Source: a virus
Lineage: Duplodnaviria; Caudoviricetes
DNA: 64,000 bases
Virus record (IMG/VR): IMGVR_UViG_3300037189_030782
Direction: 5' to 3' (one strand)
A program made the position numbers and the translations under genes. The notes beneath the pieces are model-generated. The model ran no database searches and was not told the DNA's origin. It saw only the letters and a list, made by a program, of their open reading frames with translations. Numbering within the stretch: position 1 is the first letter of the stretch; every line of letters begins with the position of its first letter. Of the stretch, positions 47,622 to 64,000 are shown in pieces.

Positions 47622-48902
47622 TACAATTACAATTTCTTGCTCTACAACAGCACTATGGGCATCAACAGCTTCTGGAAATTCTTCCCGCCACTGATCCAGA
47701 GTATCCTTTAGACTATCAGAATCTTTGAGCGCATGGTTTTCTAAAACAAGCTTCAATAATTCCAAGTAAACTGGATCAAGCTGAAAAGAGACGTCTTCAC
47801 CAAGAATATCAACAACACCATCCTTATCGATAATTGACTGGATAGTGGCCAAAACTTTCTTAATACTCTTGATACCGGCTCTGGCGTTTGAATTTTCTTC
47901 AACACCAACTTCGGCCATAGCTTGCTTCAAATTTTTGGAAGAAGCGATTGGCTTTGTCTTCGATTTCTTATTCTGAATCTCTTTTTCTCGTTCTTCAGTC
48001 CTGTCAATGACCTTCTTTGACTGTCGAAGCAAGGTTTCATCGTTATTACTTTCTGCAATAACTTTTTTTGTCTCAGCCCTACCTCTTTTATTTTTAATTG
48101 CGTCTAGCTGTTTGTCCAACTTTGAGGTTTTAGCCTTATGGCTTTCCTGTGCATTGACAATAGCAGCACTTAAAACTTCCGATCTCTTTTCAAGATCGTC
48201 AATCTTTAAAAGTTGGGAGGCTACGCTTCTCTTGATTTTGTCTTCACAAAGCTGAGACAACGTATCTTCGTCAATTTTTTCAAGAAGTTCATCTGTTTCA
48301 TGAAGCCATTTTGAATCTCTTTGCAGGATTTCAAGAATCTGATCGTCACTGGCTCCATACAAACGGAATTCCCGCACAGCAGCCACTTCATGACCGTCCG
48401 TCAGGTTGATGCGATTCTTATTTTCTGCCCATGCGAGCGTTGCAGCTTCAAGATCGCTTGCACAGCTAAATATCTGGCAGACAACGTATTCGTATGCAAT
48501 GTCAGCAGAAACCATTTCTCTTTCAGAAGTAGTTTCTCCAAATTTGCTTTCTCTTGGATCAATTACCATCTCTTTTTTAGAGATGAGATAGTCCAAGGCT
48601 CTATACCTACGATCACCACCAACAAGCTGGGGGTGTGCATTTTCACTATCGCCAACCCAACGGCAAATCAAGGGATTCAAAAGCGTTCTGTGCTTAATGT
48701 TTTCCCTTAGGTCCGCAGACAAAGACCTATCTGTAAGGGTTTCGGTGCCGTTCTGCGTTAAAAGTCTTGGGTTAGAAAATACATAATCCGAAGATTCTTC
48801 CACTTTGTCGGTGGTTATAATTTTTGAAAATTTAACTTTGAAGAGGGAACCGTGGAGATGTTCAATACCGTCAATTAAACCGAAAGAATTTGCCTTTTTC
48901 AT
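47575..48902 (-). CDS. ParB/Srx-like N-terminal domain protein with coiled coil and acidic tail (segment B half of the fused ORF)
   Basis: LRENIKHRTLLNPLICR...LVGGDRRYRAL (ParB GxRR box), AWAENKNRINL. Confidence 0.75.
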
Positions 48903-48944
48903 CGAAAAGTCCTTTTTTCTGTAAAGGTTGAAGAAATCAAAAAA

Positions 48945-49580
48945 TCAAAATTCGTATCCCTTGGTTTTTGAAAAGGGTTTGCGGCAGCGTATCAAGTTGG
49001 TTGTTTCATACTCCTTTTCACCCAAACTCTCAATACCGACATTCTTTTTTCTTAACAATAATCCTTCTAGCTGTGGGTTGTCTAAAGATTCATCAAATCT
49101 AGAAGAAAAGTTGTCATAGAAAGTTTCAGCCATCCAGTGAGATGGCGATATCTCTAATGCGATTCCTGACCTACTCTTTTTTGTGGGGCTTCCACAAATT
49201 GAATTCAAAATTTCAAGTCGCTCAACTTGCGTTGGCTTAAAAAACAAGTATCTGCCAGCTTGCAACACATCAAAGAAAATTATTTCATTGGTGGCATTAA
49301 TGTCTTTGTTCATTAATTCACCATCAAGCCAATATTCTTTGTTTTGCTCAAGATTCAAGCTATCTAATAGCTCATCCCGCCTTTTGCTTTCAAACTGGAA
49401 TTTTGAAAAAGCAGTGCCGTGTCTAGTCCCAACAGTAACTTCTTTATTGCAAGAAATATGCAGAACTATTCTGCTGCCCCTAAACTTTCTTTGTGCTACC
49501 CAATCTCCAGTTTCTTCATAGTAACGAAGATCCGTAGGAAGCATTTTGCCTTTGGGTCTGGGCGGGAAAATAATCTTCAT
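48945..49580 (-). CDS. ATP-dependent ligase adenylation domain only
   Basis: WVAQRKFRG (motif I), LDGEL (III), FFDV (IIIa), EGLLLR (IV), RCRK (V); no OB domain. Confidence 0.75.
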   Translation of the reverse strand: MKIIFPPRPKGKMLPTDLRYYEETGDWVAQRKFRGSRIVLHISCNKEVTVGTRHGTAFSKFQFESKRRDELLDSLNLEQNKEYWLDGELMNKDINATNEIIFFDVLQAGRYLFFKPTQVERLEILNSICGSPTKKSRSGIALEISPSHWMAETFYDNFSSRFDESLDNPQLEGLLLRKKNVGIESLGEKEYETTNLIRCRKPFSKTKGYEF

Positions 49581-49651
49581 AGTGATTTAACCCTCCCTCC
49601 CCAGTTTAAGGTAGCCTACCACCTTGAAATCCTTTGGTTGGCTGGGGGAAT

Positions 49652-49680
49652 ATGATAGCACAGATTTTTAGCTTGTTAAG
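49652..49680 (-). promoter_or_regulatory. Sigma70-like promoter TTAACA-N16-TATCAT with extended -10
   Basis: Minus strand CTTAACAAGCTAAAAATCTGTGCTATCAT; same architecture as four other segment-B sites. Confidence 0.6.
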
Positions 49681-49751
49681 TCCATTTTTCCCGAAAAATA
49701 CTGAGATTTTTTGCCTCTAATCTGCCGCATAAACCCCAAACAGCCCAGATT

Positions 49752-50387
49752 CTAATTGCTATCGCAAATTTTAAAAATGCTCCCACAGACCAAGCATTTA
49801 GCACGGAGAGGATTAGAACTTTTAATGCCCCTTCCACATCTAACCGAGTTGTAGGGACTTGGGCAATCACATTCGTATTTTAGAAAAAATGCTTTTTTAT
49901 TTTTTGAATTTGAGACTAAGGTGCCTCTGTCTATTTTTTCCCATTGAAAAGCATTTAATTCACAAAGAATTTTAGAATTATTTTCTGTGAATGGAATTCT
50001 GATAAACTGCGGGAGTAAGGCGTTCCTAGGAACTTCTGTGCTGAGAACAGACCATCCTTGTGCCTTGTGTTTAACAACAATGAAGCCGATACTCAAAGCA
50101 CAGTCAGCAAAAGCGTTTTTATGATAAAAATTTCTTCCAACATCAACGATTCTTTGTTGATGGTTAAAAATATGAATCATTTCATGGCACATACTAATAA
50201 AAAAATCTTCTTTAGTAGTGTACCTTGCACCAGAACCTAGCCTTAAATGATTATCTTTCCAAGAAAATAAAAAATTTTCTTGTGGAAGAATACAAAGAGG
50301 AACCTTTTGGATTCTTCCTGAGAAAAAAGATTTATTGATTGAAGAAAATAAGTTTTCTATTTGAACCAATAAATCAGGTTCTTTCAT
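49752..50387 (-). CDS. SprT-like zinc metalloprotease with C-terminal zinc ribbon
   Basis: CHEMIH (HExxH), YHKNAF, KYECDC...KCLVCG. Confidence 0.8.
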
Positions 50388-50565
50388 AGCTCTTTTTTCT
50401 TTCAGCTTCCTTTATTGCTTCATAAACTTCGCTCCTATGCACTGGTATGCGATCTGGAGCTTCTATGCCTAATCTAACGGTGTCACCCCTAATGTCTACG
50501 ATAAAAATTCTGACATTGTCGCCAATAACAACACTTTCATCCTTTTTCCTGCTTAAAACTAACAT
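50374..50565 (-). CDS. csrA: Carbon storage regulator CsrA
   Basis: [48 protein letters not shown]. Confidence 0.95.
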
Positions 50566-50605
50566 CAGAAATTCCTTTTTCGATGGAAAAAAACAAACCC
50601 AAGGA

Positions 50606-50634
50606 ATGATAACACATTCACAAGAAAAATCAAG
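50606..50634 (-). promoter_or_regulatory. Promoter upstream of csrA, TTGATT-N16-TATCAT
   Basis: Minus strand CTTGATTTTTCTTGTGAATGTGTTATCAT. Confidence 0.6.
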
Positions 50635-50636
50635 AC

Positions 50637-50669
50637 AAAAAAACCACTGAGGTTTCCCCCAGTGGTTTT
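50637..50669 (-). terminator. Rho-independent terminator
   Basis: Minus strand AAAACCACTGGGG-GAAA-CCTCAGTGGTTTT followed by further T residues. Confidence 0.85.
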
Positions 50670-50693
50670 ATTTACGAATAGTTTTATTTCAAC

Positions 50694-50849
50694 TTAGAAT
50701 AATCTTTGGCCACAGACTGTTACAGCTGCGACCCAAGCTCCGGCCTTGCCGTTGCAAATTCCAAGAGCCTGAGCAATTCTGCTGCAACGTGGATAAAAGT
50801 ATTTCCAAGAAGCAGTTGTGTAGGTTCCATTTGGTTTTAAGCATCTCAT
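50694..50849 (-). CDS. 51-aa Cys-containing peptide, absent from the ORF track
   Basis: AAGGAGG SD, MRCLKPNGTYTTASWKYFYPRCSRIAQALGICNGKAGAWVAAVTVCGQRLF, own terminator. Confidence 0.7.
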   Translation of the reverse strand: MRCLKPNGTYTTASWKYFYPRCSRIAQALGICNGKAGAWVAAVTVCGQRLF

Positions 50850-50894
50850 GAGATATCCTCCTTAATAAATGTTTGAAGCTATACTCCAACATAA

Positions 50895-51695
50895 TTATAT
50901 ATTAGTTTTCTGCATATCTTTGTCATGTTGTTCTCTAGCTTTTCGCAATATTTCCTTGACTTTTCTATTCTTATCAAATTGTTGTAGTGTGCCTCTGCCG
51001 ATGTGAGAAACCCAGCTAGAACCACAAACTCCTTGCTTAAAACCTTTAGAATTCATTCTCTTGGCAAACTCTTCTGCTTCGCAACCAGCATAAGGGTATT
51101 CTTTAAATAAACCAACATGTTTAAATAGATCTCTGTGAGCAAGTGCACAGTAAAGAGGCAAAAACTCATTTTTTAAAATGTAATTTTCTCCACTAAAAGA
51201 CCTTTTGCTTTTTAAGACATCGAAATCTACTACTGGATTATCTGTTTTTGGGGAAACCATTTTCACATTATCTTTTTTGAACGACTCCAAAAAATTGCCT
51301 AAATTTAAAAGCCAATCTTTGCTATCCAGCGAAACGTCAGAGTGCATTAATAAAACATATGGTATTTCTTTTGTTGAATTATTTTCAAATATCCAAGGAT
51401 TTGACAAAGCAAAGTTTATTGAGGATCCAAAACCTTTATTTTGTCTTTGTCTTAAGCACCGTAAGCCAGGAACCTTAGATTTTTGTATTTGTGTGTGAAA
51501 TTCGTTGTTGGAAGAACCGTCATCAACCAAAGTAACAAGGTACCTATTAGAATAAACGGTATTAAAAATGTCCTGAACTAAATTGCTTACAAACGAGTGC
51601 TTTCCATAAAAAGGAATTATTATTTCGACCTCTTTTTTGGCGAATAACTCGGTCCTTATTGTCCTATTGATCATTATTTTGTTTTCTTCCGCCAT
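50895..51695 (-). CDS. Glycosyltransferase family 2
   Basis: IIIPFYG, LVDDGS, NKGFGSSIN, LMHSDV, WVSHIG. Confidence 0.88.
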   Translation of the reverse strand: MAEENKIMINRTIRTELFAKKEVEIIIPFYGKHSFVSNLVQDIFNTVYSNRYLVTLVDDGSSNNEFHTQIQKSKVPGLRCLRQRQNKGFGSSINFALSNPWIFENNSTKEIPYVLLMHSDVSLDSKDWLLNLGNFLESFKKDNVKMVSPKTDNPVVDFDVLKSKRSFSGENYILKNEFLPLYCALAHRDLFKHVGLFKEYPYAGCEAEEFAKRMNSKGFKQGVCGSSWVSHIGRGTLQQFDKNRKVKEILRKAREQHDKDMQKTNI

Positions 51696-51759
51696 CAAGG
51701 CTCCTACTAAATTTAAAAGAAAATGACTGTTATATATTAGAGTTATATGGGAAAGAAAA

Positions 51760-52677
51760 ATGAATCAAAAAAGCATTAAAGAGTACATAAGAGCATTAGA
51801 TCACATTAGTAGTTTTCTGAAAACTCTTCTAGAAGAAGAGAATAAAATTGTACCTTTTCAAAAAGGTGAAAGGGACAGGCTATCAGAAATAACAGAACTA
51901 AGGATGTTGGCTAAATCAGATGTTTGGCCTGAGGCGGTGCCGCCAGAACTAATATGCAACGATATAGAAGAAGAAAAAATGTCAAGAGCCGCTGGCATTG
52001 TTCAAGACTTCATAGCAATGGATCTAAAAGAAAAATCATTCTTGGACTTTGGATGTGGAGAAGGCCACGTTCCATACGTTGCTGCCACTCTATATGAATC
52101 TAAAAATGTTGTTGGATATGATATAAAAAACCAAGACTGGGCAGCTCTTGACCCACACGATGAATTAAAATTCACGACAGAATGGGAAGATGTTAGAAGA
52201 AAAGGACCATATGATATTATTTTAATAAACGATGTGCTTGATCACTGCAAAGATCCAGCTTCTACACTACAAATGATCCAAGAAGTCAAAAAGCCTATCG
52301 ATGGGCAAGTTTTTCTAAGAATACACCCTTGGACAAGTCGCCATGGATCACATCTTTATAAACAATTAAATAAAGCCTATCTACATTTAGTTTTTACAAA
52401 AGATGAGCTGTATGCAATGGGGCTAGAACCTCCAGAAATTTTAAGAATAATAAACCCAATCAAAACATATAAAAGATTCATCAAAGATGCAGGGTTTACA
52501 ATACTCAAAGAAAGTGTGGTAACTCAACCAGTAGAGTTGTTCTTCACCCACACCCCAGAAGTACTTCGAAGAATAAAATCCAATTGGAGAAATAGCGACG
52601 AACCAAAATTAGCTTCTGGTGAGTTGTTTCCAAGAGAAATATTAGAAATACAGTTTATAGACTTTACTTTGATCTAA
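51760..52677 (+). CDS. Class I SAM-dependent methyltransferase
   Basis: FLDFGCGEG, VVGYDI, YDIILINDVLDH. Confidence 0.88.
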   Translation: MNQKSIKEYIRALDHISSFLKTLLEEENKIVPFQKGERDRLSEITELRMLAKSDVWPEAVPPELICNDIEEEKMSRAAGIVQDFIAMDLKEKSFLDFGCGEGHVPYVAATLYESKNVVGYDIKNQDWAALDPHDELKFTTEWEDVRRKGPYDIILINDVLDHCKDPASTLQMIQEVKKPIDGQVFLRIHPWTSRHGSHLYKQLNKAYLHLVFTKDELYAMGLEPPEILRIINPIKTYKRFIKDAGFTILKESVVTQPVELFFTHTPEVLRRIKSNWRNSDEPKLASGELFPREILEIQFIDFTLI

Positions 52678-53842
52678 GATGATTTATTGCGTGATTCCAA
52701 TCATCCTGTGCACCTCCTTGTATACTTAGTTCTTGTCTTTCTTTAAACCTTTCAAATGCAGCAAATTCTATATCCGAGTGACTGAAGTTTTTCTCTAATC
52801 TAGCTATTGCCTCTTCGAAGTCATTACCTTGTTCAAAATACTCTTTGAGTCTAAAGATTTGATCTAGATTCAAGCCATCAGATTTTTCCGCCCAGTCTTG
52901 AACTAAAATCTTTTTTCTTATAGATAAATTTGGGTTTGAAAAGCACCTTGTGTACTTAAATCTGGAAGGTCTGTTTCTCAAGGCTGAATCTACTTTTGAA
53001 ATGTCGTTTACAGTCATTATAAAAACTACGTTTTCATAAGTGGTATAAACTCCATCTAATCCGTTCAAGATTATGTCATAAGTAAATTTGATTGTACGGT
53101 TTCCTTCACCACCCATTATACATTTTCTTCCATGAAAATAATTATCAAAGTCTTCAAATAAAACTATGCACTTTTTTGGAATCTGCGAAAACATAAGAAG
53201 CAAATCCTGATTGTTCCAATCAGGATCTAGCGTAAAGATCATTATGGGCAATTTGTGCTTTGTAGAAAGATACTTTATAAATGAAGTTTTCCCGTTTCCA
53301 GGTGGCCCATAAAAAAGGGCACTAGTGGTTGATCTTTTAAGTTGAGATACCTCTTCAACCTCTCTATCAAAATCAACCCAAAGAGAATCATCAACAATAG
53401 GAGCTGGAAAAGTCTTCTTTAAAGAACCGATTTTATCAGCACCGTAGGGTAGCATAAGTTCTACAGGAACTCCCAAAGTATAAAACTGCATTTCTTTTAT
53501 TCTGCCATGTAGATACTTTTTTAATTTAGAATATTGCCAACGAAAACAAAAAATAAAAGTCAAATGGTCTTTGCCGTGATATCCTGCTTGCATCAATCTT
53601 TCTGTTCGATCTATGTAAAACCAAGGAGAACCATTAAAAAAACAAAAAGCAGAAAAAATAACGGGATGACGGTTTTCAGTTACAAATTCTTCGTGAATAA
53701 TTATCTTTTTCTCTTCTTTACAAAGCTCGTACAGAGTTTTAAAAGTATTAGTGTCTATTCGGGTTTCTATCAATAGAACATACTTAAAAACAGCCCAAAT
53801 CCCTACAAAAGATGCAAGAAGAGTAAAAACCGTTGACCACAT
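52664..53842 (-). CDS. Membrane-anchored AAA+ ATPase (BCS1-like) with DUF2934-like C-terminal motif
   Basis: N-terminal TM helix, YGPPGNGKTS, LFEDFD, DSALRNRPSRF; tail IEFAAFERFKER...DDWNHA. Confidence 0.85.
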   Translation of the reverse strand: MWSTVFTLLASFVGIWAVFKYVLLIETRIDTNTFKTLYELCKEEKKIIIHEEFVTENRHPVIFSAFCFFNGSPWFYIDRTERLMQAGYHGKDHLTFIFCFRWQYSKLKKYLHGRIKEMQFYTLGVPVELMLPYGADKIGSLKKTFPAPIVDDSLWVDFDREVEEVSQLKRSTTSALFYGPPGNGKTSFIKYLSTKHKLPIMIFTLDPDWNNQDLLLMFSQIPKKCIVLFEDFDNYFHGRKCIMGGEGNRTIKFTYDIILNGLDGVYTTYENVVFIMTVNDISKVDSALRNRPSRFKYTRCFSNPNLSIRKKILVQDWAEKSDGLNLDQIFRLKEYFEQGNDFEEAIARLEKNFSHSDIEFAAFERFKERQELSIQGGAQDDWNHAINHLRSK

Positions 53843-53956
53843 AAAATCTTCTTATTGAGGGGTCACCAAAAAAAGCAATTTAGTTCTGGGGTTCGATTTA
53901 GTCAATACCGAAAAGAAATTACATATATATTTAGAAATAGTTTAAATGGAAGCAAT

Positions 53957-54688
53957 ATGATTAAATTTAAAGAATGGTTTCAAATATCTGAGAGTAAAGG
54001 TATACGGTTAACCGATGAAATCGTGTCCCAAATTAAATCGTCTATCGACAAAATTTATCAAACAGCAAAAGCTATTAAAAAAGAGCCCGAGGGAGAGGTT
54101 TTTGATGTAGCAATAATAAAGTATAACGATCCATACTTTAAAGATAGGCAACGTGAAATAAACATACACGTTGTAAACAATAGCTATGAAAACAATAATG
54201 GGTCATTTAGAATAGGATACGGCATACAAATCAATGTTGCTCATGTTGAAGAAGAAGAACTAACTCCTAGGTGGATTGAAAGAGTAGTAGCCCATGAATT
54301 AATACACTCTATGGACCCAAAAATGAGTAACTTTAATACTTTTAAAAACGTCAAAAACTACGATAACAAAGGTGGAATCGATTACTACACTCATCCATTC
54401 GAATTCGATGCATATACAGGACAGCTAGCCTACTCAATAACAACTGCTGCGGATAGACTAAAAGGTACTGATAAAGAACCGATATTAAAAAAACAGTTAG
54501 ATGACACATTAAGATTTATATCTAATCCTGAGAAATCTAAAGCCGAAAAAATTTACGGAGTTATTGGTGATCCCGAGTACTGGAAGTATTATCACATATA
54601 CTTCGCACACGGATCATCGCAACAAAAGCGTAAAATGTATCAAAGAATATATAAAGCTGTGATAGATGCTAAGGCAAATTTGGGCTAA
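53957..54688 (+). CDS. Zincin-like HExxH protein
   Basis: VAHELIHSMD...PFEFDAY; N-terminus MIKFKEWF. Confidence 0.7.
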   Translation: MIKFKEWFQISESKGIRLTDEIVSQIKSSIDKIYQTAKAIKKEPEGEVFDVAIIKYNDPYFKDRQREINIHVVNNSYENNNGSFRIGYGIQINVAHVEEEELTPRWIERVVAHELIHSMDPKMSNFNTFKNVKNYDNKGGIDYYTHPFEFDAYTGQLAYSITTAADRLKGTDKEPILKKQLDDTLRFISNPEKSKAEKIYGVIGDPEYWKYYHIYFAHGSSQQKRKMYQRIYKAVIDAKANLG

Positions 54689-54691
54689 TTA

Positions 54692-54931
54692 TCAGTGATC
54701 AAAAGATCTGATTGCGTCCCTATTCTTTTTAGATCTTGAACCTTTATAAATATTTGAATCTGAGCTTCCAGAACGTCCATATGTTTTTGAATCACCTTGA
54801 CCGGCCATGTCGTGTATACGTGATTTACTTGTTCTTAAGGCAAGCTCTTGGTTACTCTTAATTCTTGGTTGTTTAGTTGCTGATTTTTGATTTCTTTTTT
54901 CTCTTCTTTCCAACCATAATGAAAACTTCAT
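54692..54931 (-). CDS. Small basic protein
   Basis: MKFSLWLE N-terminus; Arg/Lys-rich. Confidence 0.7.
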   Translation of the reverse strand: MKFSLWLERREKRNQKSATKQPRIKSNQELALRTSKSRIHDMAGQGDSKTYGRSGSSDSNIYKGSRSKKNRDAIRSFDH

Positions 54932-54933
54932 AT

Positions 54934-55185
54934 TTATCCTTCCAAAAGCTCTAGAATCTTTGGGCTTTTTCCAATGTATATATTGTACACATGTTCCGCT
55001 TTTTTTCCGTTTAATGTGAAAATATCGCCATTTTTTAAAGGCTTATTTATATAAGGAACATAAACAGCCTGATTGTTTAAATTTAAGATTACATTTTCTA
55101 TGTTCTCCGTCATAGGCCTAGAATATATTTCTGTGTAATCAATGTTATTAACTACAAAAGTATAAATTGGAGGAGTTAGAGGCAT
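54934..55185 (-). CDS. Hypothetical protein (83 aa)
   Basis: Tightly packed in the minus-strand run. Confidence 0.65.
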   Translation of the reverse strand: MPLTPPIYTFVVNNIDYTEIYSRPMTENIENVILNLNNQAVYVPYINKPLKNGDIFTLNGKKAEHVYNIYIGKSPKILELLEG

Positions 55186-55851
55186 TTATTCTTCTTTCTT
55201 CCAAGATACAGGTTTTGAACTTTTTTTCCTCCTTTTACCAGTGGCATTGCAGGCCGAAAAAGTTGGCCTACAAGCAGGATACTTTCTTTCTGCTCCTTTT
55301 CCTGCTTTACTTCTACCACATGGAACCTTTTTAGTCTTAGTGCTAGCCTTGCAATCGATCCATCCTTTGCCTTTATTTCTAGAAAACCAACCATGAAGGC
55401 CTTTTTCTTTTTCAAGATCAAATGTTCCTTCCCGAAAATCTTTTTTGTCCACACTGCCACTTGCGACAGCCTTTATCCTTCCAGCAAATGTGCTGGGTTT
55501 CACGCCTTCTGGTGGATATTTTCTCATGGCAGCTAAAGCATTGATGATCTCTGGGCCTGACATATTGGCTACGTCCATGTCTTGATACATTAAAGCATTA
55601 AGGGCACTTGCTGCATCGTCGTATTGCTGCTTATTTGCTAGAACTTCGTCTATTTGCACACCCTCTTCTTGCATGTGTTTTTTCTTTTTATGTTTTTTCT
55701 TTTTGGAGTTACCATAATTTTTGGCACCTTTTTTCCTACATTGGACAACCCGTCCGCTAGCATAGGCAGAGGGCCACACAGATGCTGTAGCTTTTACTTT
55801 ATAATAACAAGCATCTTTTTCTTCGTTCATTAACCATTCACTAAAATTCAT
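55186..55851 (-). CDS. Basic Cys-containing hypothetical protein
   Basis: GGAGG SD; MNFSEWLMNEE start; KDACYYKVK...PSAYASG and GLHGWF...PCGR blocks. Confidence 0.75.
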   Translation of the reverse strand: MNFSEWLMNEEKDACYYKVKATASVWPSAYASGRVVQCRKKGAKNYGNSKKKKHKKKKHMQEEGVQIDEVLANKQQYDDAASALNALMYQDMDVANMSGPEIINALAAMRKYPPEGVKPSTFAGRIKAVASGSVDKKDFREGTFDLEKEKGLHGWFSRNKGKGWIDCKASTKTKKVPCGRSKAGKGAERKYPACRPTFSACNATGKRRKKSSKPVSWKKEE

Positions 55852-55891
55852 ATATTCCTCCCAAACTTTAATTATATATTAACGATACTAA

Positions 55892-56491
55892 TTATTTGTC
55901 GTGCTCTAGCTCTGTTAGCCAGTAAGCTTCTCCTATAAATTGGCTCCAAGACCTGACCCTCTGATCCCCAATAAAAAAATTACATTTAGGCTTAACAGGC
56001 TTTTTAAGAAGTTTCATTCCAGCTTGTTGTGGGGTTCTTCCAGCCTTTTTTAGGTTGCATTTTACACAAGCTACTACAACATTTTCCCAATTTGTTAACC
56101 CGCCTTGGCACCTTGGGAGAACATGATCTAATGATAAATCTTCTTTAGACATACAGTATTGGCACTGGTTTTCGTCCCTCAAAAATATCGTTCTTCTATT
56201 ATAATGAATTTCTTTTTGTGGAACTTTATCATAACGAGTAAACTGAATTACTTCTGGTATCCTTAGTATAGAATTTACGGTTCTTATGCCCTCTTCGTCA
56301 TGAGAAGGTTGCATTTTTGTCCAATCAGACCAATCGAAAGACTTAAAATCATTTAAACAATCAACGATTTTTGCTTTTGGAAATCCATCTTTGTAAGGAG
56401 ATGTTAGTTTTATTATTGCATTTTCTAAAGTAGTTGTGCCTATTGCAAGCCAAGATTTATTTAATACTAAAACTCTCCTGTTTTGTATCAT
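55892..56491 (-). CDS. HNH endonuclease (McrA-like)
   Basis: RVLVLN, CQYC, LDHVLPRCQGG, NWENVVVACVKCNLKK; ATG 56491 overlaps upstream TGA. Confidence 0.92.
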   Translation of the reverse strand: MIQNRRVLVLNKSWLAIGTTTLENAIIKLTSPYKDGFPKAKIVDCLNDFKSFDWSDWTKMQPSHDEEGIRTVNSILRIPEVIQFTRYDKVPQKEIHYNRRTIFLRDENQCQYCMSKEDLSLDHVLPRCQGGLTNWENVVVACVKCNLKKAGRTPQQAGMKLLKKPVKPKCNFFIGDQRVRSWSQFIGEAYWLTELEHDK

Positions 56492-56850
56492 CCTGCTCCT
56501 TGGAGATCCTGCGTCTTTATCAGAAGCTCCCCTACTACCTCTATTCTCCCCAATAACTTTTGAAACTCTATCTGATTTACTTTTTCTATCGAGTTCATTT
56601 TTGAGTGTAGACGTGTACATAATTCTTGATATTCCTTTTTCATTTCTACTCTATCAAATTTACCTTCTTTTGCCTTTTCATAATATGGCAATTTTACAGA
56701 AAAATGATCTCTAGTTAAAAGGGCTGGGCCACCTTTTTTGTCAGCCATATTTACTATCTTTTCTGCTCCTTGATATCTCTTGCCTGCAAATGTTACGAAA
56801 TCAGATTCTATGGATTCATTTATTCCAGATAATTTAAGCCATTCATTCAT
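56488..56850 (-). CDS. Hypothetical protein
   Basis: AAGGA SD; MNEWLKLSGINES start. Confidence 0.75.
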   Translation of the reverse strand: MNEWLKLSGINESIESDFVTFAGKRYQGAEKIVNMADKKGGPALLTRDHFSVKLPYYEKAKEGKFDRVEMKKEYQELCTRLHSKMNSIEKVNQIEFQKLLGRIEVVGELLIKTQDLQGAG

Positions 56851-56897
56851 AATTTTCCTTTCTTTTAATTATATATACATTAAAGTGAGTCAAAACA

Positions 56898-57332
56898 ATG
56901 TTAAACTTTAAAAACTGGTTATTAAATGAAGGAAGCAATCCTGGATCTAAAACTGGTCTATATCCTCTTAGTTATGGGGGTATAGGTCTGTACCCACCTC
57001 AGTGGTACACCACAAGAAGTGCAGACGCAATCTTTTACTTATCAATTGACGACCGAATCTACAAAGGAAAAGATGGTGGTCAATTTGACATTACACACAT
57101 TCCTGGTGAAAGCAACGAAAAGATGAACAGTGGAGATGGTGGACTATGGGATATAACACACATAAAAGGAAAACCAAGCCACCTAAAAAAGAACAGCAAT
57201 TTTGCAGCAAATAATGGAGAAGGAGCACCATGGAAAATTACACACATCCCCGGCAAACCAACTTATACAAAGCATAAAGATTTTGTGCCGGATGAAGGTG
57301 AAGGCGGCATTTGGAATATAAAGAATGTATAG
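56898..57332 (+). CDS. Hypothetical protein with four GxGGxWxITHIxG-type repeats
   Basis: DGGQFDITHIPG, DGGLWDITHIKG, EGAPWKITHIPG, EGGIWNIKNV. Confidence 0.8.
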   Translation: MLNFKNWLLNEGSNPGSKTGLYPLSYGGIGLYPPQWYTTRSADAIFYLSIDDRIYKGKDGGQFDITHIPGESNEKMNSGDGGLWDITHIKGKPSHLKKNSNFAANNGEGAPWKITHIPGKPTYTKHKDFVPDEGEGGIWNIKNV

Positions 57333-57341
57333 GAAAAATAA

Positions 57342-57626
57342 ATGAAAAAAATCTACCCAATATTGTGCTTATTAAGTTTACTACTAAACATATATTTTTT
57401 ATATGAATTTGGAGAAAATAGAACCAGTCATAATATGAATTATAAAAAAGCTAATATTGAATTAATTAAAAATAATAGAGAGGTTAATAGAAAAGATGCT
57501 ATAAGTGATGATACCACATTATTCGTATTAAACTTTTCATCTCATATTAGCGAATGTGAAAAGTTTTTATGGACATTCAGCGAAAATAAAGACGAAATAA
57601 AATATACAATATGGTTTGCCAAGTAA
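57342..57626 (+). CDS. Membrane-anchored hypothetical protein
   Basis: N-terminal hydrophobic helix ILCLLSLLLNIYFLY. Confidence 0.65.
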   Translation: MKKIYPILCLLSLLLNIYFLYEFGENRTSHNMNYKKANIELIKNNREVNRKDAISDDTTLFVLNFSSHISECEKFLWTFSENKDEIKYTIWFAK

Positions 57627-57630
57627 ACTC

Positions 57631-58038
57631 TTAAACCATTCTTCCATTTTCCAAAACCGATTCCGCATACTCTTTTGGAACTAAAATATAATATTCTTTA
57701 TTATGAGGACAAGAAATTAAAATCTGATTTTGTGATTGCTTTTTTTTAGCTTGCTCTACACCCATAACTTGTTCACATCCCTTTTCTTTTAGTAAATCTT
57801 GCCAAACCCACTCATAGCCATCTTCTGCTTTTTCACAAAACAAACTTAAAAGCCATCCTTCGAACAAGTCCATATATCTTTCATCGAAAATACTATAAAG
57901 TAACTTAGGCTTACATCCATCACAGGCTTTAACGTCAACATTCTTGGGGTCTTTATACCAGCTAGATACTAGTCCACTGCCGCATCCACATTGCCGAATT
58001 AACTTGTAGTATCTACCCATTGGCCCAAGATCAGACAT
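57631..58038 (-). CDS. Hypothetical zinc-binding protein (SEC-C-like CGCGSG)
   Basis: CGCGSG and CDGC. Confidence 0.65.
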   Translation of the reverse strand: MSDLGPMGRYYKLIRQCGCGSGLVSSWYKDPKNVDVKACDGCKPKLLYSIFDERYMDLFEGWLLSLFCEKAEDGYEWVWQDLLKEKGCEQVMGVEQAKKKQSQNQILISCPHNKEYYILVPKEYAESVLENGRMV

Positions 58039-59120
58039 TAATTATTCTTTCTAAACATCTTGCCAACCAAGGCTCTCTTTAGTGGCTTATGGATTTTTCT
58101 ACAGATTTTGCTTAAAACCTTGCATTCTTCTTTTTTAGTAGGTTCCTTTTCTTTAACCATTGCACCTTCATACAGAACACTTTTAGGCAAGGATGGTTTT
58201 GTTTCCTCAATATTGTTCTGTGGTTTAACAGAACCAAACATAGCTGCATATGGGCACTTCTTGATGGCCTCTTGTTGTGCTGCATCTTGGCCTTCAACAA
58301 TTTTTCTTATAGATTCATCTGCATCATTAAACATTGAATTTCGCCCTATACCTAAAGCTTTAGACCGTTCCTTGAAGAAAGTAGTAGAATCTTTCATGTA
58401 AGAACCATCTGGCGTTAGTAGTTGTTTGCCACCGCTTTCAAACTTCTTCTTATTATAATCTATCCAATAGGTAAAAACCTCATCGGCTTCCTTTGAATCT
58501 CTATTAATCATCTCTGGGCAGATCGTCCAGTTATCTTCTATTAAAGCTCGATCTACTAGTGTTAAATGTGCCAGAGGAACATCTTTTTTAACAACAACTT
58601 TTTTGTTTTCTGCGTCAACAATAATGTTAACCCAAATATCATATTGCATCCAATCTGTTTCCAAAAGACCTTCCATAACATGAAAATCACGTCTTGGAAA
58701 ATTAATTGGTTCTCTTATGTGTAAACAAATATTTTTTGGAGTCTGGAATATTAATCCTGTCCATATTTGTATTACGTTGGGTTCTACGGTTCCCCATGTA
58801 AACTTAGTCCTACCATCGGCACACCAAAAAAGCTTATCTGTTTCGTGTCTGAGATTTTCTTTTCCGGGTTGACTCATTAAGTCAACAACTCTTTTGCCGT
58901 CTTCACCGCTGTAATCTTCTAAGACTTTGTATTCAATCTTACCGTTAGAATAAGTAAATTCAAAACTGACGGGAGGGTAAAGCCAAAACCCCAACTTATT
59001 TACAGAGGAATACGGGCCACACCATTTAACACCGTCTTTGTTGGCGAGGCCAAGGCAAGTTTTCTCTGCTTTTTCTATTCTTGCACAATTTGAGTGCATC
59101 TGCCAGACTTTAAGTTCCAT
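58038..59120 (-). CDS. DUF6065-like protein with acidic/basic tail
   Basis: GFWLYPP, WTGLIFQTP, EPINFP, GLLETDW resemble the DUF6065 pattern as I recall it. Confidence 0.55.
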   Translation of the reverse strand: MELKVWQMHSNCARIEKAEKTCLGLANKDGVKWCGPYSSVNKLGFWLYPPVSFEFTYSNGKIEYKVLEDYSGEDGKRVVDLMSQPGKENLRHETDKLFWCADGRTKFTWGTVEPNVIQIWTGLIFQTPKNICLHIREPINFPRRDFHVMEGLLETDWMQYDIWVNIIVDAENKKVVVKKDVPLAHLTLVDRALIEDNWTICPEMINRDSKEADEVFTYWIDYNKKKFESGGKQLLTPDGSYMKDSTTFFKERSKALGIGRNSMFNDADESIRKIVEGQDAAQQEAIKKCPYAAMFGSVKPQNNIEETKPSLPKSVLYEGAMVKEKEPTKKEECKVLSKICRKIHKPLKRALVGKMFRKNN

Positions 59121-59131
59121 TTTATTTGCTC

Positions 59132-60259
59132 CTAAAATCCTATTTTTTTCTTATCAATTTCTTTCTTATAATTGTCTTCTGCATTATAAATATCTGCAAG
59201 CGTTAAGGGAATATCAGTTTTTCTATCCGAATTTATTTTTTCAAATATTTTATTACAATTATCTGCTGGCAGTTCCTTGAATTCGTGTTCTAGCATTAAA
59301 CGACCTTTTCTAAGCAAAGCAGAATCTATTTTATCTCTAGATGTATTAAAGGTTGCTATAACGAATATATTAAGACAATCGCCCAACAAACCATCTGTGA
59401 TATTTAATATGTTTGAAATTGCTGAATTTTCTTGTTCTTCTCTGCTTTTTAAAACTTTCTCTGCGTCTTCCAAAAGAAATATAGAATCTTTATAGTCTGT
59501 CATAAAGCTTAGAAAAGAAGGGCTGGTTATTTCTTCAGTGAATGCAGAAGGAAGATAAATAATCTTTCTGTCTACCTTAGAAGAAAGATATTTAATAAAT
59601 GTGCTTTTTCCTGTTCCAGGCTTTCCAGAAAATAAAATCAAACCAGATTTCTTTTTTTCTAATATGTCTATTATTTTTGCTTCCTTGCCTGCAAGCTCCT
59701 CGCCATAATTAAGTTCTATGTCTAAATCATCTTCAGTTGGCAAGACAATATCAAACCTTTGGACATCTAGCACACCTTCCACCTTACACATAAGGTGAAT
59801 GCTTTTAGTGTTTTTTTCTTTTACGTAATCAAATAGAGACTTTATTTTAAAAAGAGTTTCTTCTTGTGAATAAAAAACTCTGCAATAGTTGCCATCATCA
59901 GGACAATCCTGATATGTTTCCCCATAAGCACGAGAAAAACTAGACAGTCTTGGTTGCTTTAAAACACAAATTACTGCATCCTCAAACTCAAAAGCTACCT
60001 CTGAATCGTTTGCTTCTGTTCCAAAGGAAAGCTCACCCTTATCAAGTTTATCAGAAGTGTATTTAAATATTTGTTTTGCACCAATGCCTATAAGTTTATC
60101 AAGGATAGAAGTACTTATTAAAGATGTATTTGAATAATAATTAGGTTGTTGAGAGAATTTATATAAATAATAATAGAAGTAATTAAAATAAGTTGTATGA
60201 TCAGCAGTTTTGGCAGCGTAGGGTCTAAACGACGAATCTACTCTAGGAGAAAAATCCAT
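59132..60259 (-). CDS. AAA+ ATPase (BCS1-like)
   Basis: FSGKPGTGKST, LLEDAE, LNITDGLLGD, IDSALLRKGRL, KKKIGF tail. Confidence 0.9.
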   Translation of the reverse strand: MDFSPRVDSSFRPYAAKTADHTTYFNYFYYYLYKFSQQPNYYSNTSLISTSILDKLIGIGAKQIFKYTSDKLDKGELSFGTEANDSEVAFEFEDAVICVLKQPRLSSFSRAYGETYQDCPDDGNYCRVFYSQEETLFKIKSLFDYVKEKNTKSIHLMCKVEGVLDVQRFDIVLPTEDDLDIELNYGEELAGKEAKIIDILEKKKSGLILFSGKPGTGKSTFIKYLSSKVDRKIIYLPSAFTEEITSPSFLSFMTDYKDSIFLLEDAEKVLKSREEQENSAISNILNITDGLLGDCLNIFVIATFNTSRDKIDSALLRKGRLMLEHEFKELPADNCNKIFEKINSDRKTDIPLTLADIYNAEDNYKKEIDKKKIGF

Positions 60260-60472
60260 ATGGAGCCTTTAAGTAAAAAATTTCTTATCGAAAGAGGAGT
60301 TTGTTGTGGATGCAAATGCACAAACTGCCCCTATTGGCCTAAACATAAAAAAGGCCAGACTCTTCTATACGAAAAGAGTCTGGCCTTTTTAAATCAAGAA
60401 AATTGTTTTTCAGCTTCTATCCAAAAAGAAGATCCATCACAGTCGGGACGACCTGCTTCTTCCCAAAGATAA
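60260..60472 (+). CDS. Small Cys-rich protein (DUF5522-like)
   Basis: AGGAG SD; FLIERGVCCGCKCTNCPY motif. Confidence 0.55.
   Translation: MEPLSKKFLIERGVCCGCKCTNCPYWPKHKKGQTLLYEKSLAFLNQENCFSASIQKEDPSQSGRPASSQR
60348..60390. terminator. Bidirectional terminator
   Basis: Perfect 17-bp stem AAAAAGGCCAGACTCTT / AAGAGTCTGGCCTTTTT. Confidence 0.85.
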
Positions 60473-60654
60473 TAAGCAAGTTCTCTAATTTTTTCTTCTT
60501 GGTTCTTTTCACAAATATTTTCTTCAATATTTCTAATTCCACCACAAGATGTTGGCATTTCTAAAGAAACAGTCTGATTATTCATTGTTGAACTTTCCTT
60601 GTTGTTATTAAAAGACCATTGGAAGGGATTCAGTTTACCAAAAAAACTTTCCAT
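60394..60654 (-). CDS. DUF2934 domain protein
   Basis: KIRELAYYLWEEAGRPDCDGSSFWIEAEKQ. Confidence 0.85.
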   Translation of the reverse strand: MESFFGKLNPFQWSFNNNKESSTMNNQTVSLEMPTSCGGIRNIEENICEKNQEEKIRELAYYLWEEAGRPDCDGSSFWIEAEKQFS

Positions 60655-60660
60655 TGTCAA

Positions 60661-60870
60661 CTAAAGCCTCGCAATTCTAGAGAATAAAAAAACAAAAATT
60701 TCAAAACCAACCATCTGCCAATAAGATAGGCTGGGTAGGTTGAATACGGGGACTAAAAGTTTTTTCCATAAGTAAGAATTAGGAAAAGCTAAAACTAAAA
60801 CAACAATCAAAACAGACAAAAGATTTGTAGAAACTTTAACGACTTCATCTGGTTGTGTTTTTTGGTTCAT
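60661..60870 (-). CDS. Small membrane protein
   Basis: Hydrophobic helices; LVPVFNLPSLSYWQ. Confidence 0.65.
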   Translation of the reverse strand: MNQKTQPDEVVKVSTNLLSVLIVVLVLAFPNSYLWKKLLVPVFNLPSLSYWQMVGFEIFVFLFSRIARL

Positions 60871-61132
60871 TTCCAAAAAATTTATTGGCGGCATTTTTTG
60901 CTATTTCCAACAGTGATTGTTTTAACAAAAAGTTGCATTGAGAACAAATGGAATTTGTCTCGACCAGAGGCTTCTCAGGAAAGGCCTCTGTCGGGATTCC
61001 ACAATGGACACAATAAACATAAAAAGAATTACCAGCGTGTAAGCCCTTTGAATCAAAATTTTTTATAGAGTTTCCATAGGCAACTCTACGAATGTATTGA
61101 TCCAGCAATTCTTTTGATGAGTCGCAGTTCAT
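60845..61132 (-). CDS. Hypothetical zinc-finger protein
   Basis: CVHCG and CSQC pairs. Confidence 0.65.
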   Translation of the reverse strand: MNCDSSKELLDQYIRRVAYGNSIKNFDSKGLHAGNSFYVYCVHCGIPTEAFPEKPLVETNSICSQCNFLLKQSLLEIAKNAANKFFGNEPKNTTR

Positions 61133-61167
61133 GGTCTCGCTTAACTCTATTCGCCCTATTTTTTATT

Positions 61168-61380
61168 TAGGCTATTTGTTAAGTCCCCAATCACGGTATC
61201 TACTTACCGAAGCCAAGAAACCATCCATTATTTCTGAACCCTTTCGGTAGCCAGAATATAAAAGAAGATTCACCCTCATACACAAATGGCAGGTACATTC
61301 GCAAAAGGGTCCGCTTGACTCAAACGGGGTTTTGGAAACACTACAACTTATTCTAAAGTTCTCAGAGTAATGCCAGCCCA
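61168..61380 (-). ncRNA. Candidate structured non-coding RNA (~210 nt)
   Basis: TATAAT just upstream; nested long-range stems plus four internal stems; only a weak TTG ORF competes. Confidence 0.4.
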
Positions 61381-61440
61381 AGATATTATAATTAACCCGC
61401 TAAAGTCTTTTGCTCAAGGCCAAGACATAATTATCTCCTG

Positions 61441-61692
61441 TTATTTTTGTTCAGAATAAACCGCAGGTTCAATTAAGTCAATATCTAAACCAGAATTTTT
61501 GAATCTCTCAAGATGTCTTTGCTGTCTAGCTAGTTTTTTCCAGTTTTCTTCTTTTGGAAATCCACATGATAATTCCAGTTCTCCATTCATACGTTTGCGA
61601 AAAACTTCTCTAGCTTCTTGTACGGTATCTGCTGCTGCTCCAAAACTACCGAATCCGTATTCAAAAACAAAAAAGTATCTCGACGCTTGCAT
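61441..61692 (-). CDS. Hypothetical protein (83 aa)
   Basis: GGAGG SD before ATG 61692 (MQASRYFF). Confidence 0.7.
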   Translation of the reverse strand: MQASRYFFVFEYGFGSFGAAADTVQEAREVFRKRMNGELELSCGFPKEENWKKLARQQRHLERFKNSGLDIDLIEPAVYSEQK

Positions 61693-61710
61693 GTTTGTGC
61701 CTCCAAAATA

Positions 61711-61739
61711 ATTGTACCACAACAAAACAGTTTGTAAAG
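61711..61739 (-). promoter_or_regulatory. Promoter TTTACA-N16-TACAAT with extended -10
   Basis: Minus strand CTTTACAAACTGTTTTGTTGTGGTACAAT. Confidence 0.65.
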
Positions 61740-61753
61740 TGTAGTTGATTTTT

Positions 61754-62062
61754 TTACAAAGTAACAGTGTTTTTTTTGTAATTTTCGTTAAGCTTTTGAT
61801 ATTCTTCTGCCGATAAATCTGTTTCACTTAAATGACACCTTAACCAGTCAGTAGCTTTTGCTTCATAAGCTTTCATACTCCAAATCATAAACCCTGCAAT
61901 AGTTCTGGGTAGCCAATACTTTGTACTCGGGGACAACATTTCTTTTGCTATCTCAATTTGTTCTTCTTGTGTTCTAGCGTTTTGACGAAAACATAAAACT
62001 AGCCAGGCATCAAACCAACAATTTTCGCACAACTGTTTTTTTAAATTTTCTAGTTCAAACAT
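61754..62062 (-). CDS. Hypothetical protein (102 aa)
   Basis: ATG ORF with protein-like composition. Confidence 0.65.
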   Translation of the reverse strand: MFELENLKKQLCENCWFDAWLVLCFRQNARTQEEQIEIAKEMLSPSTKYWLPRTIAGFMIWSMKAYEAKATDWLRCHLSETDLSAEEYQKLNENYKKNTVTL

Positions 62063-62151
62063 TTTTATGGTTCACTCGGTGGTGATGTTAAATCTTTGCT
62101 TTTGGTTCACTCGGTACTTCTGTTGATATCTTGTTAGCGTCATATGGTTTT

Positions 62152-62188
62152 ATAAACCGGGAGAGTTGGTTGTCCTCTCCCGGTTTAT
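62152..62188. terminator. Terminator hairpin
   Basis: ATAAACCGGGAGAG-N9-CTCTCCCGGTTTAT, 14-bp stem. Confidence 0.8.
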
Positions 62189-62200
62189 CATCTTTTTATC

Positions 62201-62407
62201 TTACTCTTTTAAGACAATTCTTTCTCCATTGGAACCGCCTAATGCAGCACCTCCTTTCAAGAAAGACAAAGTCATATTTATTTCCCAATCAGCAGAGCCT
62301 TGCCTTTTCATAGAAGCAATTAGCTCTTCTTTGGTTACCTCTACAATCTTAGGGTTCTTATTCCTAAGATCGTTGAGTCCTTGTAAAACAGCAGCACTAA
62401 AAAACAT
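62201..62407 (-). CDS. Small hypothetical protein (68 aa)
   Basis: Between the structured leader and a terminator. Confidence 0.65.
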   Translation of the reverse strand: MFFSAAVLQGLNDLRNKNPKIVEVTKEELIASMKRQGSADWEINMTLSFLKGGAALGGSNGERIVLKE

Positions 62408-62440
62408 GGTTACTCTCTCTCTGTTAAAGGGAGATCAAGA

Positions 62441-62546
62441 AGGCGGATAATCCGCTTTTTCACAGGAAACACTCCTGTGCGTATCCCAGCAAAGATAGCT
62501 GGTGGCACCGTGGCTTTTGCTCGGTTGCCAGTGCCTTTCGGCACCT
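62441..62546 (-). ncRNA. Candidate structured leader / sRNA of five consecutive hairpins
   Basis: GTGCC-GAAA-GGCAC, TGGCA..TGCCA, CCAGC..GCTGG, CACAGGA..TCCTGTG, GCGGA..TCCGC directly after a promoter. Confidence 0.5.
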
Positions 62547-62569
62547 TCTTAATACTTCCTACAAAAATT

Positions 62570-62598
62570 AGTATAGCACTAGGTTTTGACTTGTAAAG
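62570..62598 (-). promoter_or_regulatory. Promoter TTTACA-N16-TATACT with extended -10
   Basis: Minus strand CTTTACAAGTCAAAACCTAGTGCTATACT. Confidence 0.65.
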
Positions 62599-62632
62599 AG
62601 ACCTAAAAAGATTTTGCTAATTTCAAATTTTG

Positions 62633-62878
62633 CTATCTGGGTACTAATCCTGCGTCTATGCCATTTAACCCGACTTGTAGCCACAAAAGCCTATCATACT
62701 CGTCCCAGACTATATTAAGAAGCATATCATTGGTATAAAGTGGATGAGACCATAAATCCTCTAGTATTTTAAACTCAAGAAGCTCTTCATCTTGACAGTA
62801 ATAGTCTAGATTAAAATATTTATACTGTAACTCTTTTGCGATCTTTCTTGCGCGACCAAATTTAAGCCAAACGTTCAT
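62633..62878 (-). CDS. Hypothetical protein (81 aa)
   Basis: ATG ORF between hairpin and promoter. Confidence 0.6.
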   Translation of the reverse strand: MNVWLKFGRARKIAKELQYKYFNLDYYCQDEELLEFKILEDLWSHPLYTNDMLLNIVWDEYDRLLWLQVGLNGIDAGLVPR

Positions 62879-62896
62879 TTTTATACACCAAAGACC

Positions 62897-62943
62897 AAGA
62901 ATCGGCCACCAAACTTATTTATTTTATTTGGTGGCCGATTCTT
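62897..62943 (-). terminator. Terminator hairpin
   Basis: 17-bp perfect stem AAGAATCGGCCACCAAA / TTTGGTGGCCGATTCTT after the 62959 gene. Confidence 0.75.
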
Positions 62944-62958
62944 TTTGGTCTAAAAGTA

Positions 62959-63480
62959 TTAGCGATTCAAGAGACGCTTTCTGTACTTAACATCGATGTT
63001 GCCACTCTTTCTATTGGTGACAACAACCTCATACCGACCGTAGTCCTTGACAACTCTGTTGCCATCTCGGCTAACGGTGGTGGTGTCCTTGCAAGCGCAA
63101 GGAGGAACACAGATGGGAACATTAAGCTCCGTAGCGACCTTGCTGCAAGTGCAAGGGTCTCTCTTGCACACACATAGCGTTGCCGTATCCGGCACAGCGT
63201 TAGGTGCAATGTTTCTCTTGTGCCTATAGGTAACCTTGGGCTCGTTGCCGCAGCTATTGCAACCACAGTTGGGACCACTGCAAGTGGGTGAAACAATCGC
63301 AGCAGTCGAAGTAATCACGGCAGAGTCATAAGTCGAGGATGCTGGGGCCGTGGCCTGTGCTTCCTTAGAAGATAAGATACTGACCGTGTTATCAGCAAGA
63401 GTAGGTGACTGTTGATCTGCCCCAAAAACAAAAATGGGACAAACTGCAACAAAGAAAAAAACAACGTTTAAAAATCTCAT
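62959..63480 (-). CDS. Secreted Cys-rich protein
   Basis: AAAGGAG SD; signal peptide MRFLNVVFFFVAVCPIFVFGA; CSGPNCGCNSC, CVCKRDPCTC, CVPPCAC. Confidence 0.8.
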   Translation of the reverse strand: MRFLNVVFFFVAVCPIFVFGADQQSPTLADNTVSILSSKEAQATAPASSTYDSAVITSTAAIVSPTCSGPNCGCNSCGNEPKVTYRHKRNIAPNAVPDTATLCVCKRDPCTCSKVATELNVPICVPPCACKDTTTVSRDGNRVVKDYGRYEVVVTNRKSGNIDVKYRKRLLNR

Positions 63481-63551
63481 TTCTAAACTCCTTTCAAAAG
63501 GTAACAAACCGACCGACCGAAACAGCAACCAAACTTATGACTGCCGTTATT

Positions 63552-63580
63552 ATGATAGCACGATATTTTCAAAAATCAAT
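63552..63580 (-). promoter_or_regulatory. Promoter TTGATT-N16-TATCAT with extended -10
   Basis: Minus strand ATTGATTTTTGAAAATATCGTGCTATCAT. Confidence 0.6.
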
Positions 63581-63606
63581 AGCATCAAAATAAAAATTAC
63601 TAAAAT

Positions 63607-63870
63607 TTATCTGTGCCATCTTGCTATTTCTTTATCCAAATCACCTAACTTTTCTAAAGCAGCAACAATTTGTTTCACCCCAGAAGAACCCAAGTTCTCT
63701 ATTGAAGAAATCTGTTTCTCATTTAAAGAAACTAAGTCCTTTATATAAATTAAGTTGTGCTTAGAATCTTCCAAGGCATTAATTACCCTTAAAGGAAGAC
63801 CAAGATACTCTAATTCAGCTATAGGGATGTTTTCTTTAATCGCCTTTTTTGTCAAATCGTTGTTTATCAC
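63607..63870 (-). CDS. Stand-alone RNA polymerase alpha subunit C-terminal-domain-like protein
   Basis: IPIAELEYLGLPLRVINALE...YIKDLVSLNEKQISSIENLGSSGVKQIVAALEKLG matches the alpha-CTD helix-hairpin-helix pattern; GTG start with AAGGAG SD. Confidence 0.8.
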   Translation of the reverse strand: MINNDLTKKAIKENIPIAELEYLGLPLRVINALEDSKHNLIYIKDLVSLNEKQISSIENLGSSGVKQIVAALEKLGDLDKEIARWHR

Positions 63871-63871
63871 T

Positions 63872-64000
63872 TTATCTCCTTACTTTTGTGACTTTGTGTG
63901 GCCTCATAATAGTTCCAGTATTAGAAGCTACTTTTTCTGGGCCTATGTAGACATATTTGGGCGTTTCGTTTTTAAATTTTACATATATCGCCGTTCTATC
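63872..64000 (-). CDS. Hypothetical protein, C-terminal fragment (truncated by window)
   Basis: Open frame DRTAIYVKFK...KVTKVRR to TAA at 63872-63874. Confidence 0.5.
   Translation of the reverse strand, partial: DRTAIYVKFKNETPKYVYIGPEKVASNTGTIMRPHKVTKVRR

Follow-up and report, generated by a model that had tools for sequence, protein, structure and literature searches.

A likely SAM-I clan riboswitch ahead of a small phage gene

The window analyzed here is a 64-kb stretch (64,000 nt) of DNA from a myovirus, recognizable by its tail sheath and baseplate genes, and all coordinates refer to it unless another locus is named. Positions 1-46000 have a GC content of about 42-46% and a positive GC skew, with structural and replication genes on the plus strand, and positions 48000-64000 have 34-37% GC, a negative skew and small genes on the minus strand. 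Gene products in the latter region include an HNH endonuclease (55892-56620, minus; PF14279, PF01844), a weak match to an ATP-dependent DNA ligase domain (48945-49580, minus), a small DUF2934 protein (60394-60660, minus; 43 bits) and two AAA-type ATPases (52664-53842 and 59132-60259, both minus), both of which match phrog_7485 and phrog_14322, families of unknown function. At 63607-63870 (minus) lies a gene for a stand-alone 87-aa protein with an RNA polymerase alpha C-terminal domain (PF03118, 35 bits; cut-off, 23.8). A cysteine-rich ORF of 189 aa, hydrophobic at its N-terminus and matching no family (62959-63528, minus), is followed by a hairpin of its own (about 62940-62893) and sits directly upstream of the unit that concerns us, all of which is read on the minus strand:

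62570-62597 (minus): sigma-70-like promoter, with -35 TTTACA at 62597-62592, a 16-nt spacer, TG at 62578-62577 and TATACT at 62575-62570
62405-62421 (minus): ribosome binding site, read from the sequence, with the purine run GAGAGAGAG at 62421-62413 and the AUG at 62407-62405
62201-62407 (minus): 68-aa ORF, the putatively regulated gene, from the ORF list
62154-62186 (minus): 3′ hairpin closing the unit, read from the sequence as AAACCGGGAGAG, a loop and CUCUCCCGGUUU

The promoter scan matched this promoter to the consensus at 10/12 positions, with an extended -10 TG, and transcription is predicted to start at about 62563 (minus). An early promoter ahead of a hairpin cluster and a 68-aa ORF behind it had been proposed in a first-pass annotation of this DNA, and both were located on the minus strand. 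The hairpin that it had read as a terminator after the ORF is present too, at 62186-62154, a strong one whose GC-rich stem of 9 bp carries an A/U extension; the run of U residues behind it is weak, and the site was not called in the terminator scan. A second promoter-like site at 61711-61738 (minus; TTTACA, 16 nt, TG, TACAAT) precedes the next small genes, and the shared form of the two sites suggests a common early-promoter type. A coding reading of the leader was set aside, the 44-aa GTG ORF at 62410-62544 having no counterpart in the related metagenomic locus (L001) described below.

Between promoter and ORF, five consecutive hairpins cover 104 nt (62546-62443, minus). The first-pass annotation had seen all five, about 105 nt placed back to back with a GAAA tetraloop, but had missed a sixth helix, P1, which draws the first three hairpins together. 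The resulting fold reads as follows:

62555-62551 paired with 62485-62481 (minus): P1, GUAUU/GAUAC, the closing helix that makes the first three hairpins part of a four-way junction
62550-62547 (minus): J1/2, AAGA
62546-62530 (minus): P2, a hairpin with its GAAA loop at 62539-62536
62529-62504 (minus): P3, GGCAACC...GGUGCC
62502-62486 (minus): P4, a hairpin within the junction
62479-62461 (minus): P5, CACAGGA, loop GUGUU, UCCUGUG, lying 3′ of P1 and aligning to the 3′ hairpin of RF01725
62455-62443 (minus): P6, a local hairpin, GCGGA, loop UUA, UCCGC

The four-way-junction core thus occupies 62481-62555 (minus). The folding energy of a 201-nt stretch is -69.3 kcal/mol, compared with -47.5 ± 4.4 kcal/mol for 200 dinucleotide shuffles (z = -5.0), none of which equaled it (0/200). 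An Rfam scan, a check that the first-pass annotation had proposed, matched 62560-62445 (minus) to RF01725, the SAM-I/IV riboswitch, at 52.2 bits (gathering score, 41.1; E = 1.2e-5). The alignment spans the full model, positions 1-99, and was the sole Rfam match at gathering threshold in the 64-kb window. The earlier suggestion of an "undescribed riboswitch-like leader" was therefore right about the riboswitch leader but not about its being undescribed, since the match lies above the gathering score. The helix order, P1-P2-P3-P4-P1′-P5, equals that of the env87 aptamer (PDB 4L81), whose sequence we took from PMC5393176. SAM-I/IV riboswitches are set apart by a P2 that has neither internal loop nor kink-turn and by the lack of PK-1 (Weinberg 2010, PMC2864571). 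In the window, P2 is a short closed hairpin of five stacked pairs plus an outer A-U, and its loop belongs to the GNRA type here and in L001 alike.

The ligand core points the same way. In SAM-I, positions 6-8, 11-12, 44-47, 57-59 and 87 lie within 5 Å of SAM (PMC6890682), and their equivalents in the window read A-U-U, G-A, C-A-A-C, U-G-C and A. All match SAM-I save for a C-to-U change at position 8, where the U still pairs with G; the equivalent position in L001 is C. The features of a SAM-I-type core are thus all present, comprising the A-U and U-A pairs of P1, the G-A of J1/2 (62548-62547, minus), the C-A-A-C of P3 and the U-G-C. Given the family match, the helix order and the conserved ligand-contacting nucleotides, we consider it likely that the hairpin cluster is a SAM-sensing riboswitch aptamer of the SAM-I clan, closest to SAM-I/IV, carried by a self-contained phage transcription unit in its 5′ leader.

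Its periphery departs from that of the known structure. PK-2 of env87 arises by pairing between its P3 loop and its 3′ tail (4L81, PMC5393176). PK-2 was not found in the window: the best duplex between P3 loop and 3′ tail reaches -2.4 kcal/mol, a value that 78% of shuffles equal or beat, and the same duplex search recovered the env87 PK-2 as ACGGAC/GUCCGU at -9.8 kcal/mol. The L001 pairing between P3 loop and 3′ tail is discontinuous and not conserved. The site of the env87 PK-2 3′ strand is instead occupied by P6, in which GCGGA pairs locally with UCCGC; the P6 stem is the same in L001, with a different loop (AGAA). With PK-2 missing and a local P6 in its place, the aptamer is, as judged from sequence, a peripheral variant of the SAM-I clan closest to SAM-I/IV. 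As such it would serve as a natural experiment on how far binding depends on the SAM-I/IV periphery.

Two metagenomic loci with a homologue of the ORF, L001 and L002, were compared with the window; homologues P0003 and P0005-P0010 were left out. L002 is uninformative on the aptamer because just 173 nt precede its ORF homologue, all of them inside another ORF; it also carries a tRNA gene (L002 positions 1656-1731, plus; Rfam tRNA, 59 bits) 1.3 kb downstream of the homologue. L001 runs in the order promoter, aptamer, an extra 94-aa ORF, a 74-aa homologue of the 68-aa protein, and closing hairpin. Its promoter keeps the -35 element, the spacing and TGC-TAGAAT with a diverged spacer sequence, and the closing hairpin after the ORF is the same as in the window. 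The L001 aptamer (L001 positions 2497-2626) scores 39.4 bits with RF01725, slightly below the gathering score of 41.1. The 94-aa ORF (L001 positions 2669-2953, plus) is an orphan that Pfam does not match and that the window lacks, and its place between aptamer and homologue means that the L001 switch would head a two-gene operon. Flanking genes are unrelated between the two loci in both directions, so the cassette is the only part that they have in common. Differing sites between the window and L001 were distributed as follows:

Aptamer, P1 to P1′: 7/75 aligned sites, 3 of them outside the P3 loop
ORF third codon positions: 25/68
ORF fourfold-degenerate sites: 7/23
Promoter spacer and 5′ flank: 25/49

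The aptamer changes far less than the synonymous codon sites do, and we infer from this comparison that the RNA is under purifying selection. All 23/23 counted pairs of P1-P4 are kept in L001, and across the six helices 70/70 pair cells are standard in the two loci. P1 shows one change between C-G (L001) and U-G (window), the P2 loop is GAAA in the window and GCAA in L001, P3 differs in length by 12 nt, and the P4 and P6 loops vary. Covariation in relatives, another check raised by the first-pass annotation, was borne out insofar as structure is kept in L001 and two of the seven P5 pairs are compensatory (A-U to G-C twice), but it carries no statistical weight, since L001 is the single informative relative: with two sequences, the covariation score was reached by 127/500 shuffles. 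Wider searches returned no relative of the 68-aa protein in IMG/VR with either a single-sequence or an alignment query, and no DNA or protein match among GenBank phages. DNA-pattern matches in IMG/VR were rejected by eye and with Rfam as chance occurrences in coding DNA, and the one match in a GTDB genome scan, inside a gene, was likewise put down to chance. The overlap of the window with the nearest virus record is 100% identical but stops at about position 46600, so that this record is silent on the riboswitch locus.

How the aptamer might act on the gene is suggested by the strand that follows it:

62428-62442 (minus): putative switching strand, CUUCUUGAU at 62442-62434 and then UCUCCCU, directly 3′ of P6

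The stretch CUUCUUGAU has its complement in AUUAAGAAG (62553-62545), a segment made up of the 3′ part of the P1 5′ strand, J1/2 and the base with which P2 begins, and UCUC within UCUCCCU is able to pair with the Shine-Dalgarno (SD) sequence. The 9-bp alternative helix so formed excludes P1 and the ligand-binding J1/2, and it forms in the window's minimum-energy structure when no constraint is set. L001 has an equivalent, AGAAG/CUUCU plus GGUAU/AUGCC, likewise in its minimum-energy structure, with partly different sequence making up the helix; CCGCCUUCU does not vary between the two loci. When P1 was forced and J1/2 left unpaired in the window, the freed CUU..UCUC strand paired with GAGA..GAG of the ribosome site; when P1 was forced in L001, the hairpin holding the ribosome site grew longer. 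Opening energies were computed for positions -16 to +3 under 12 combinations of 5′ and 3′ ends, and forcing P1 raised the cost of opening the ribosome site in 12/12 settings, by a small +0.3 to +2.7 kcal/mol in the window and by +3.5 to +7.7 kcal/mol in L001. The unpaired probabilities of the window SD did not differ between the free and P1-forced states. In the window, the alternative fold is favored over the P1-forced one by about 9 kcal/mol, and SAM would thus need to take effect while the RNA is still being transcribed.

We propose that at low SAM, AUUAAGAAG would pair with CUUCUUGAU downstream of P6, tying up the pyrimidine-rich anti-SD strand and allowing the purine-rich ribosome site to open more easily. 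With SAM bound, P1 and J1/2 would be locked in the four-way junction, and the freed CUU..UCUC strand could then pair with GAGA..GAG, so that translation of the small protein would drop. Because forcing P1 raises the modeled opening cost of the ribosome site throughout, the riboswitch is probably a translational OFF switch, through which SAM would repress the 68-aa protein.

Control at the level of transcription is an alternative for the same SAM aptamer, with P6 and the U-rich run after it folding into an intrinsic terminator upon SAM binding. The terminator scan does rate GCGGA-UUA-UCCGC followed by CUUCUUGAU as terminator-like, and such an arrangement would agree with termination as the mode of many SAM-I clan switches in Firmicutes. 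However, the P6 stem has just 5 bp and the U-run is poor, only the window copy is rated terminator-like, and the L001 tail, CUUCUAAAUG, falls short in the same scan. P6 is moreover present whether P1 is forced or the RNA folds freely, so that nothing switches it, and the strand that competes with P1 falls after P6, not inside it. We therefore regard termination as improbable, and as less likely than translational control. A SAM-I-like fold that no longer senses SAM is another possibility, whether as an mRNA-stabilizing leader, as a sensor of some other ligand (e.g., SAH or an analogue) or as a decaying relic. The missing PK-2 and the atypical gene context would fit such a history, and ligand specificity cannot be read from sequence alone; yet two diverged copies retain every SAM-contacting position, change is far slower in the aptamer than at synonymous sites, and the conserved competing helix fits a working switch, which together make loss of SAM sensing very unlikely.

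The first-pass annotation had favored a different reading, in which GGA motifs in the leader bind a phage-encoded CsrA, the RNA acting as a sponge or CsrA repressing the 68-aa ORF, as parts of a phage Csr circuit. Its ingredients are real: the csrA at 50374-50565 (minus), 12 kb from the leader, is a genuine 63-aa homologue of this global RNA-binding regulator with a full-length PF02599 match (88 bits), and the four GGA sites that were pointed out (UAGGAA, UGGGAU, CAGGAG and GCGGAU) are present. Four sites are, however, not an enrichment over the 2.7 ± 1.2 expected (24% of shuffles reach four; p about 0.24), and ANGGA is absent from the leader. In the fold that matches the riboswitch model, 4/4 GGA sites lie in stems or flanks and none in loops. 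Refolding through CAC-AGGA-GUG had been suggested to expose AGGA in a loop; L001 reads CAC-AAGG-GUG there, two of the four GGA sites, this one included, are lost in that locus, and the competing 7-bp P5 is kept by the two compensatory changes. Neither ribosome binding site, in the window or in L001, contains GGA, and the Csr/Rsm sRNA families had no Rfam match anywhere in the 64-kb window. On this evidence a CsrA-binding role for the leader appears extremely unlikely.

The output gene of the proposed translational switch is an orphan. Nine homologues of the 68-aa protein were found, 72-93% identical and with 30 residues invariant, and an identical copy lies on a 381-kb contig. The protein has no match in Pfam or PHROG; a search for longer homologues found none. 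The AlphaFold2 model (pLDDT 76) arranges the chain as helix-strand-helix-helix-strand-strand and found no convincing fold match with Foldseek (best E-value, 1.8) or in a wide VIA search (best Z, 3.6). Winged-helix leads from a protein-atlas search were sub-threshold only and were dropped. Pfam and PHROG likewise gave no link to methionine or SAM metabolism downstream of either aptamer, where the genes are orphans of 68 aa in the window and of 94 aa and 74 aa in L001. Control by the switch would give this orphan protein a testable link to SAM biology.

SAM matters to the phage's own chemistry, since the window encodes two SAM-consuming enzymes: a radical SAM enzyme with a SPASM domain (18203-19357, minus; PF04055, PF13186) and a class I SAM-dependent methyltransferase (51760-52677, plus; PF13489 and others). 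A SAM sensor on a phage of about 380 kb would mean that the phage monitors the methyl-donor pool, which feeds DNA methylation and restriction evasion as well as the phage's radical-SAM and methyltransferase enzymes. A census of riboswitch classes came to the view that phages seldom use them and listed only c-di-GMP-I and glutamine examples (McCown 2017, PMC5473149), the former in C. difficile prophages and the latter in cyanophages (PMC5473149, PMC9004378); a later paper added glutamine riboswitches in marine phages, in Melnitz and pelagiphages (PMC9004378). In the open-access literature we found no description of a SAM-class riboswitch on a phage genome. The RNA class itself is already known (PMC2864571; 4L81 structure), and what is unusual here is the phage carrier, the orphan output gene and the altered periphery. 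We speculate that promoter, PK-2-less aptamer, small ORF and hairpin could make up a portable cassette by which huge phages sense host SAM and make an effector only when it is depleted, a possibility that we hold tentatively and consider doubtful. If it were true, SAM might run low through host defense, starvation or the activity of the phage enzymes that consume it; the 68-aa protein would be a new factor linked to SAM, and the SAM-I clan would gain a new peripheral subtype, defined by P6.

Among known systems, SAM-I/IV (RF01725; env87, 4L81) is closest, sharing the SAM-I-type core, a plain P2, the lack of PK-1, a P4 in the junction and a P5 after P1. The window RNA differs in having the local hairpin P6 instead of PK-2, and in being phage-borne ahead of an orphan 68-aa gene, whereas typical members precede genes for methionine, sulfur or SAM metabolism. 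SAM-I (S-box, RF00162) has the same four-way junction P1-P4, and the 3V7E sequence (PMC5393176) has UAU.AAGA, GGCAACC, GGUGCC and GAUA in common with the window, with the same ligand contacts save the change at position 8; in contrast to SAM-I, P2 is uninterrupted with a 4-nt loop, there is no kink-turn and no PK-1 partner for J3/4, and P5 and P6 are added 3′ of P1. SAM-IV (RF00634; cryo-EM, PMC6890682) is alike in its ligand core and in the P5 hairpin after P1, but it lacks P4 and has both PK-1 and PK-2, whereas the window RNA has P4 and neither pseudoknot was found in it. CsrB/RsmZ sponges are likewise multi-hairpin RNAs in genomes with csrA; unlike in those sponges, GGA in the window is not enriched, not in loops and not conserved, and there is no match to their families. 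The c-di-GMP-I and glutamine switches of phages differ in ligand class and resemble the window RNA in their arrangement, a metabolite-sensing leader placed before a phage gene.
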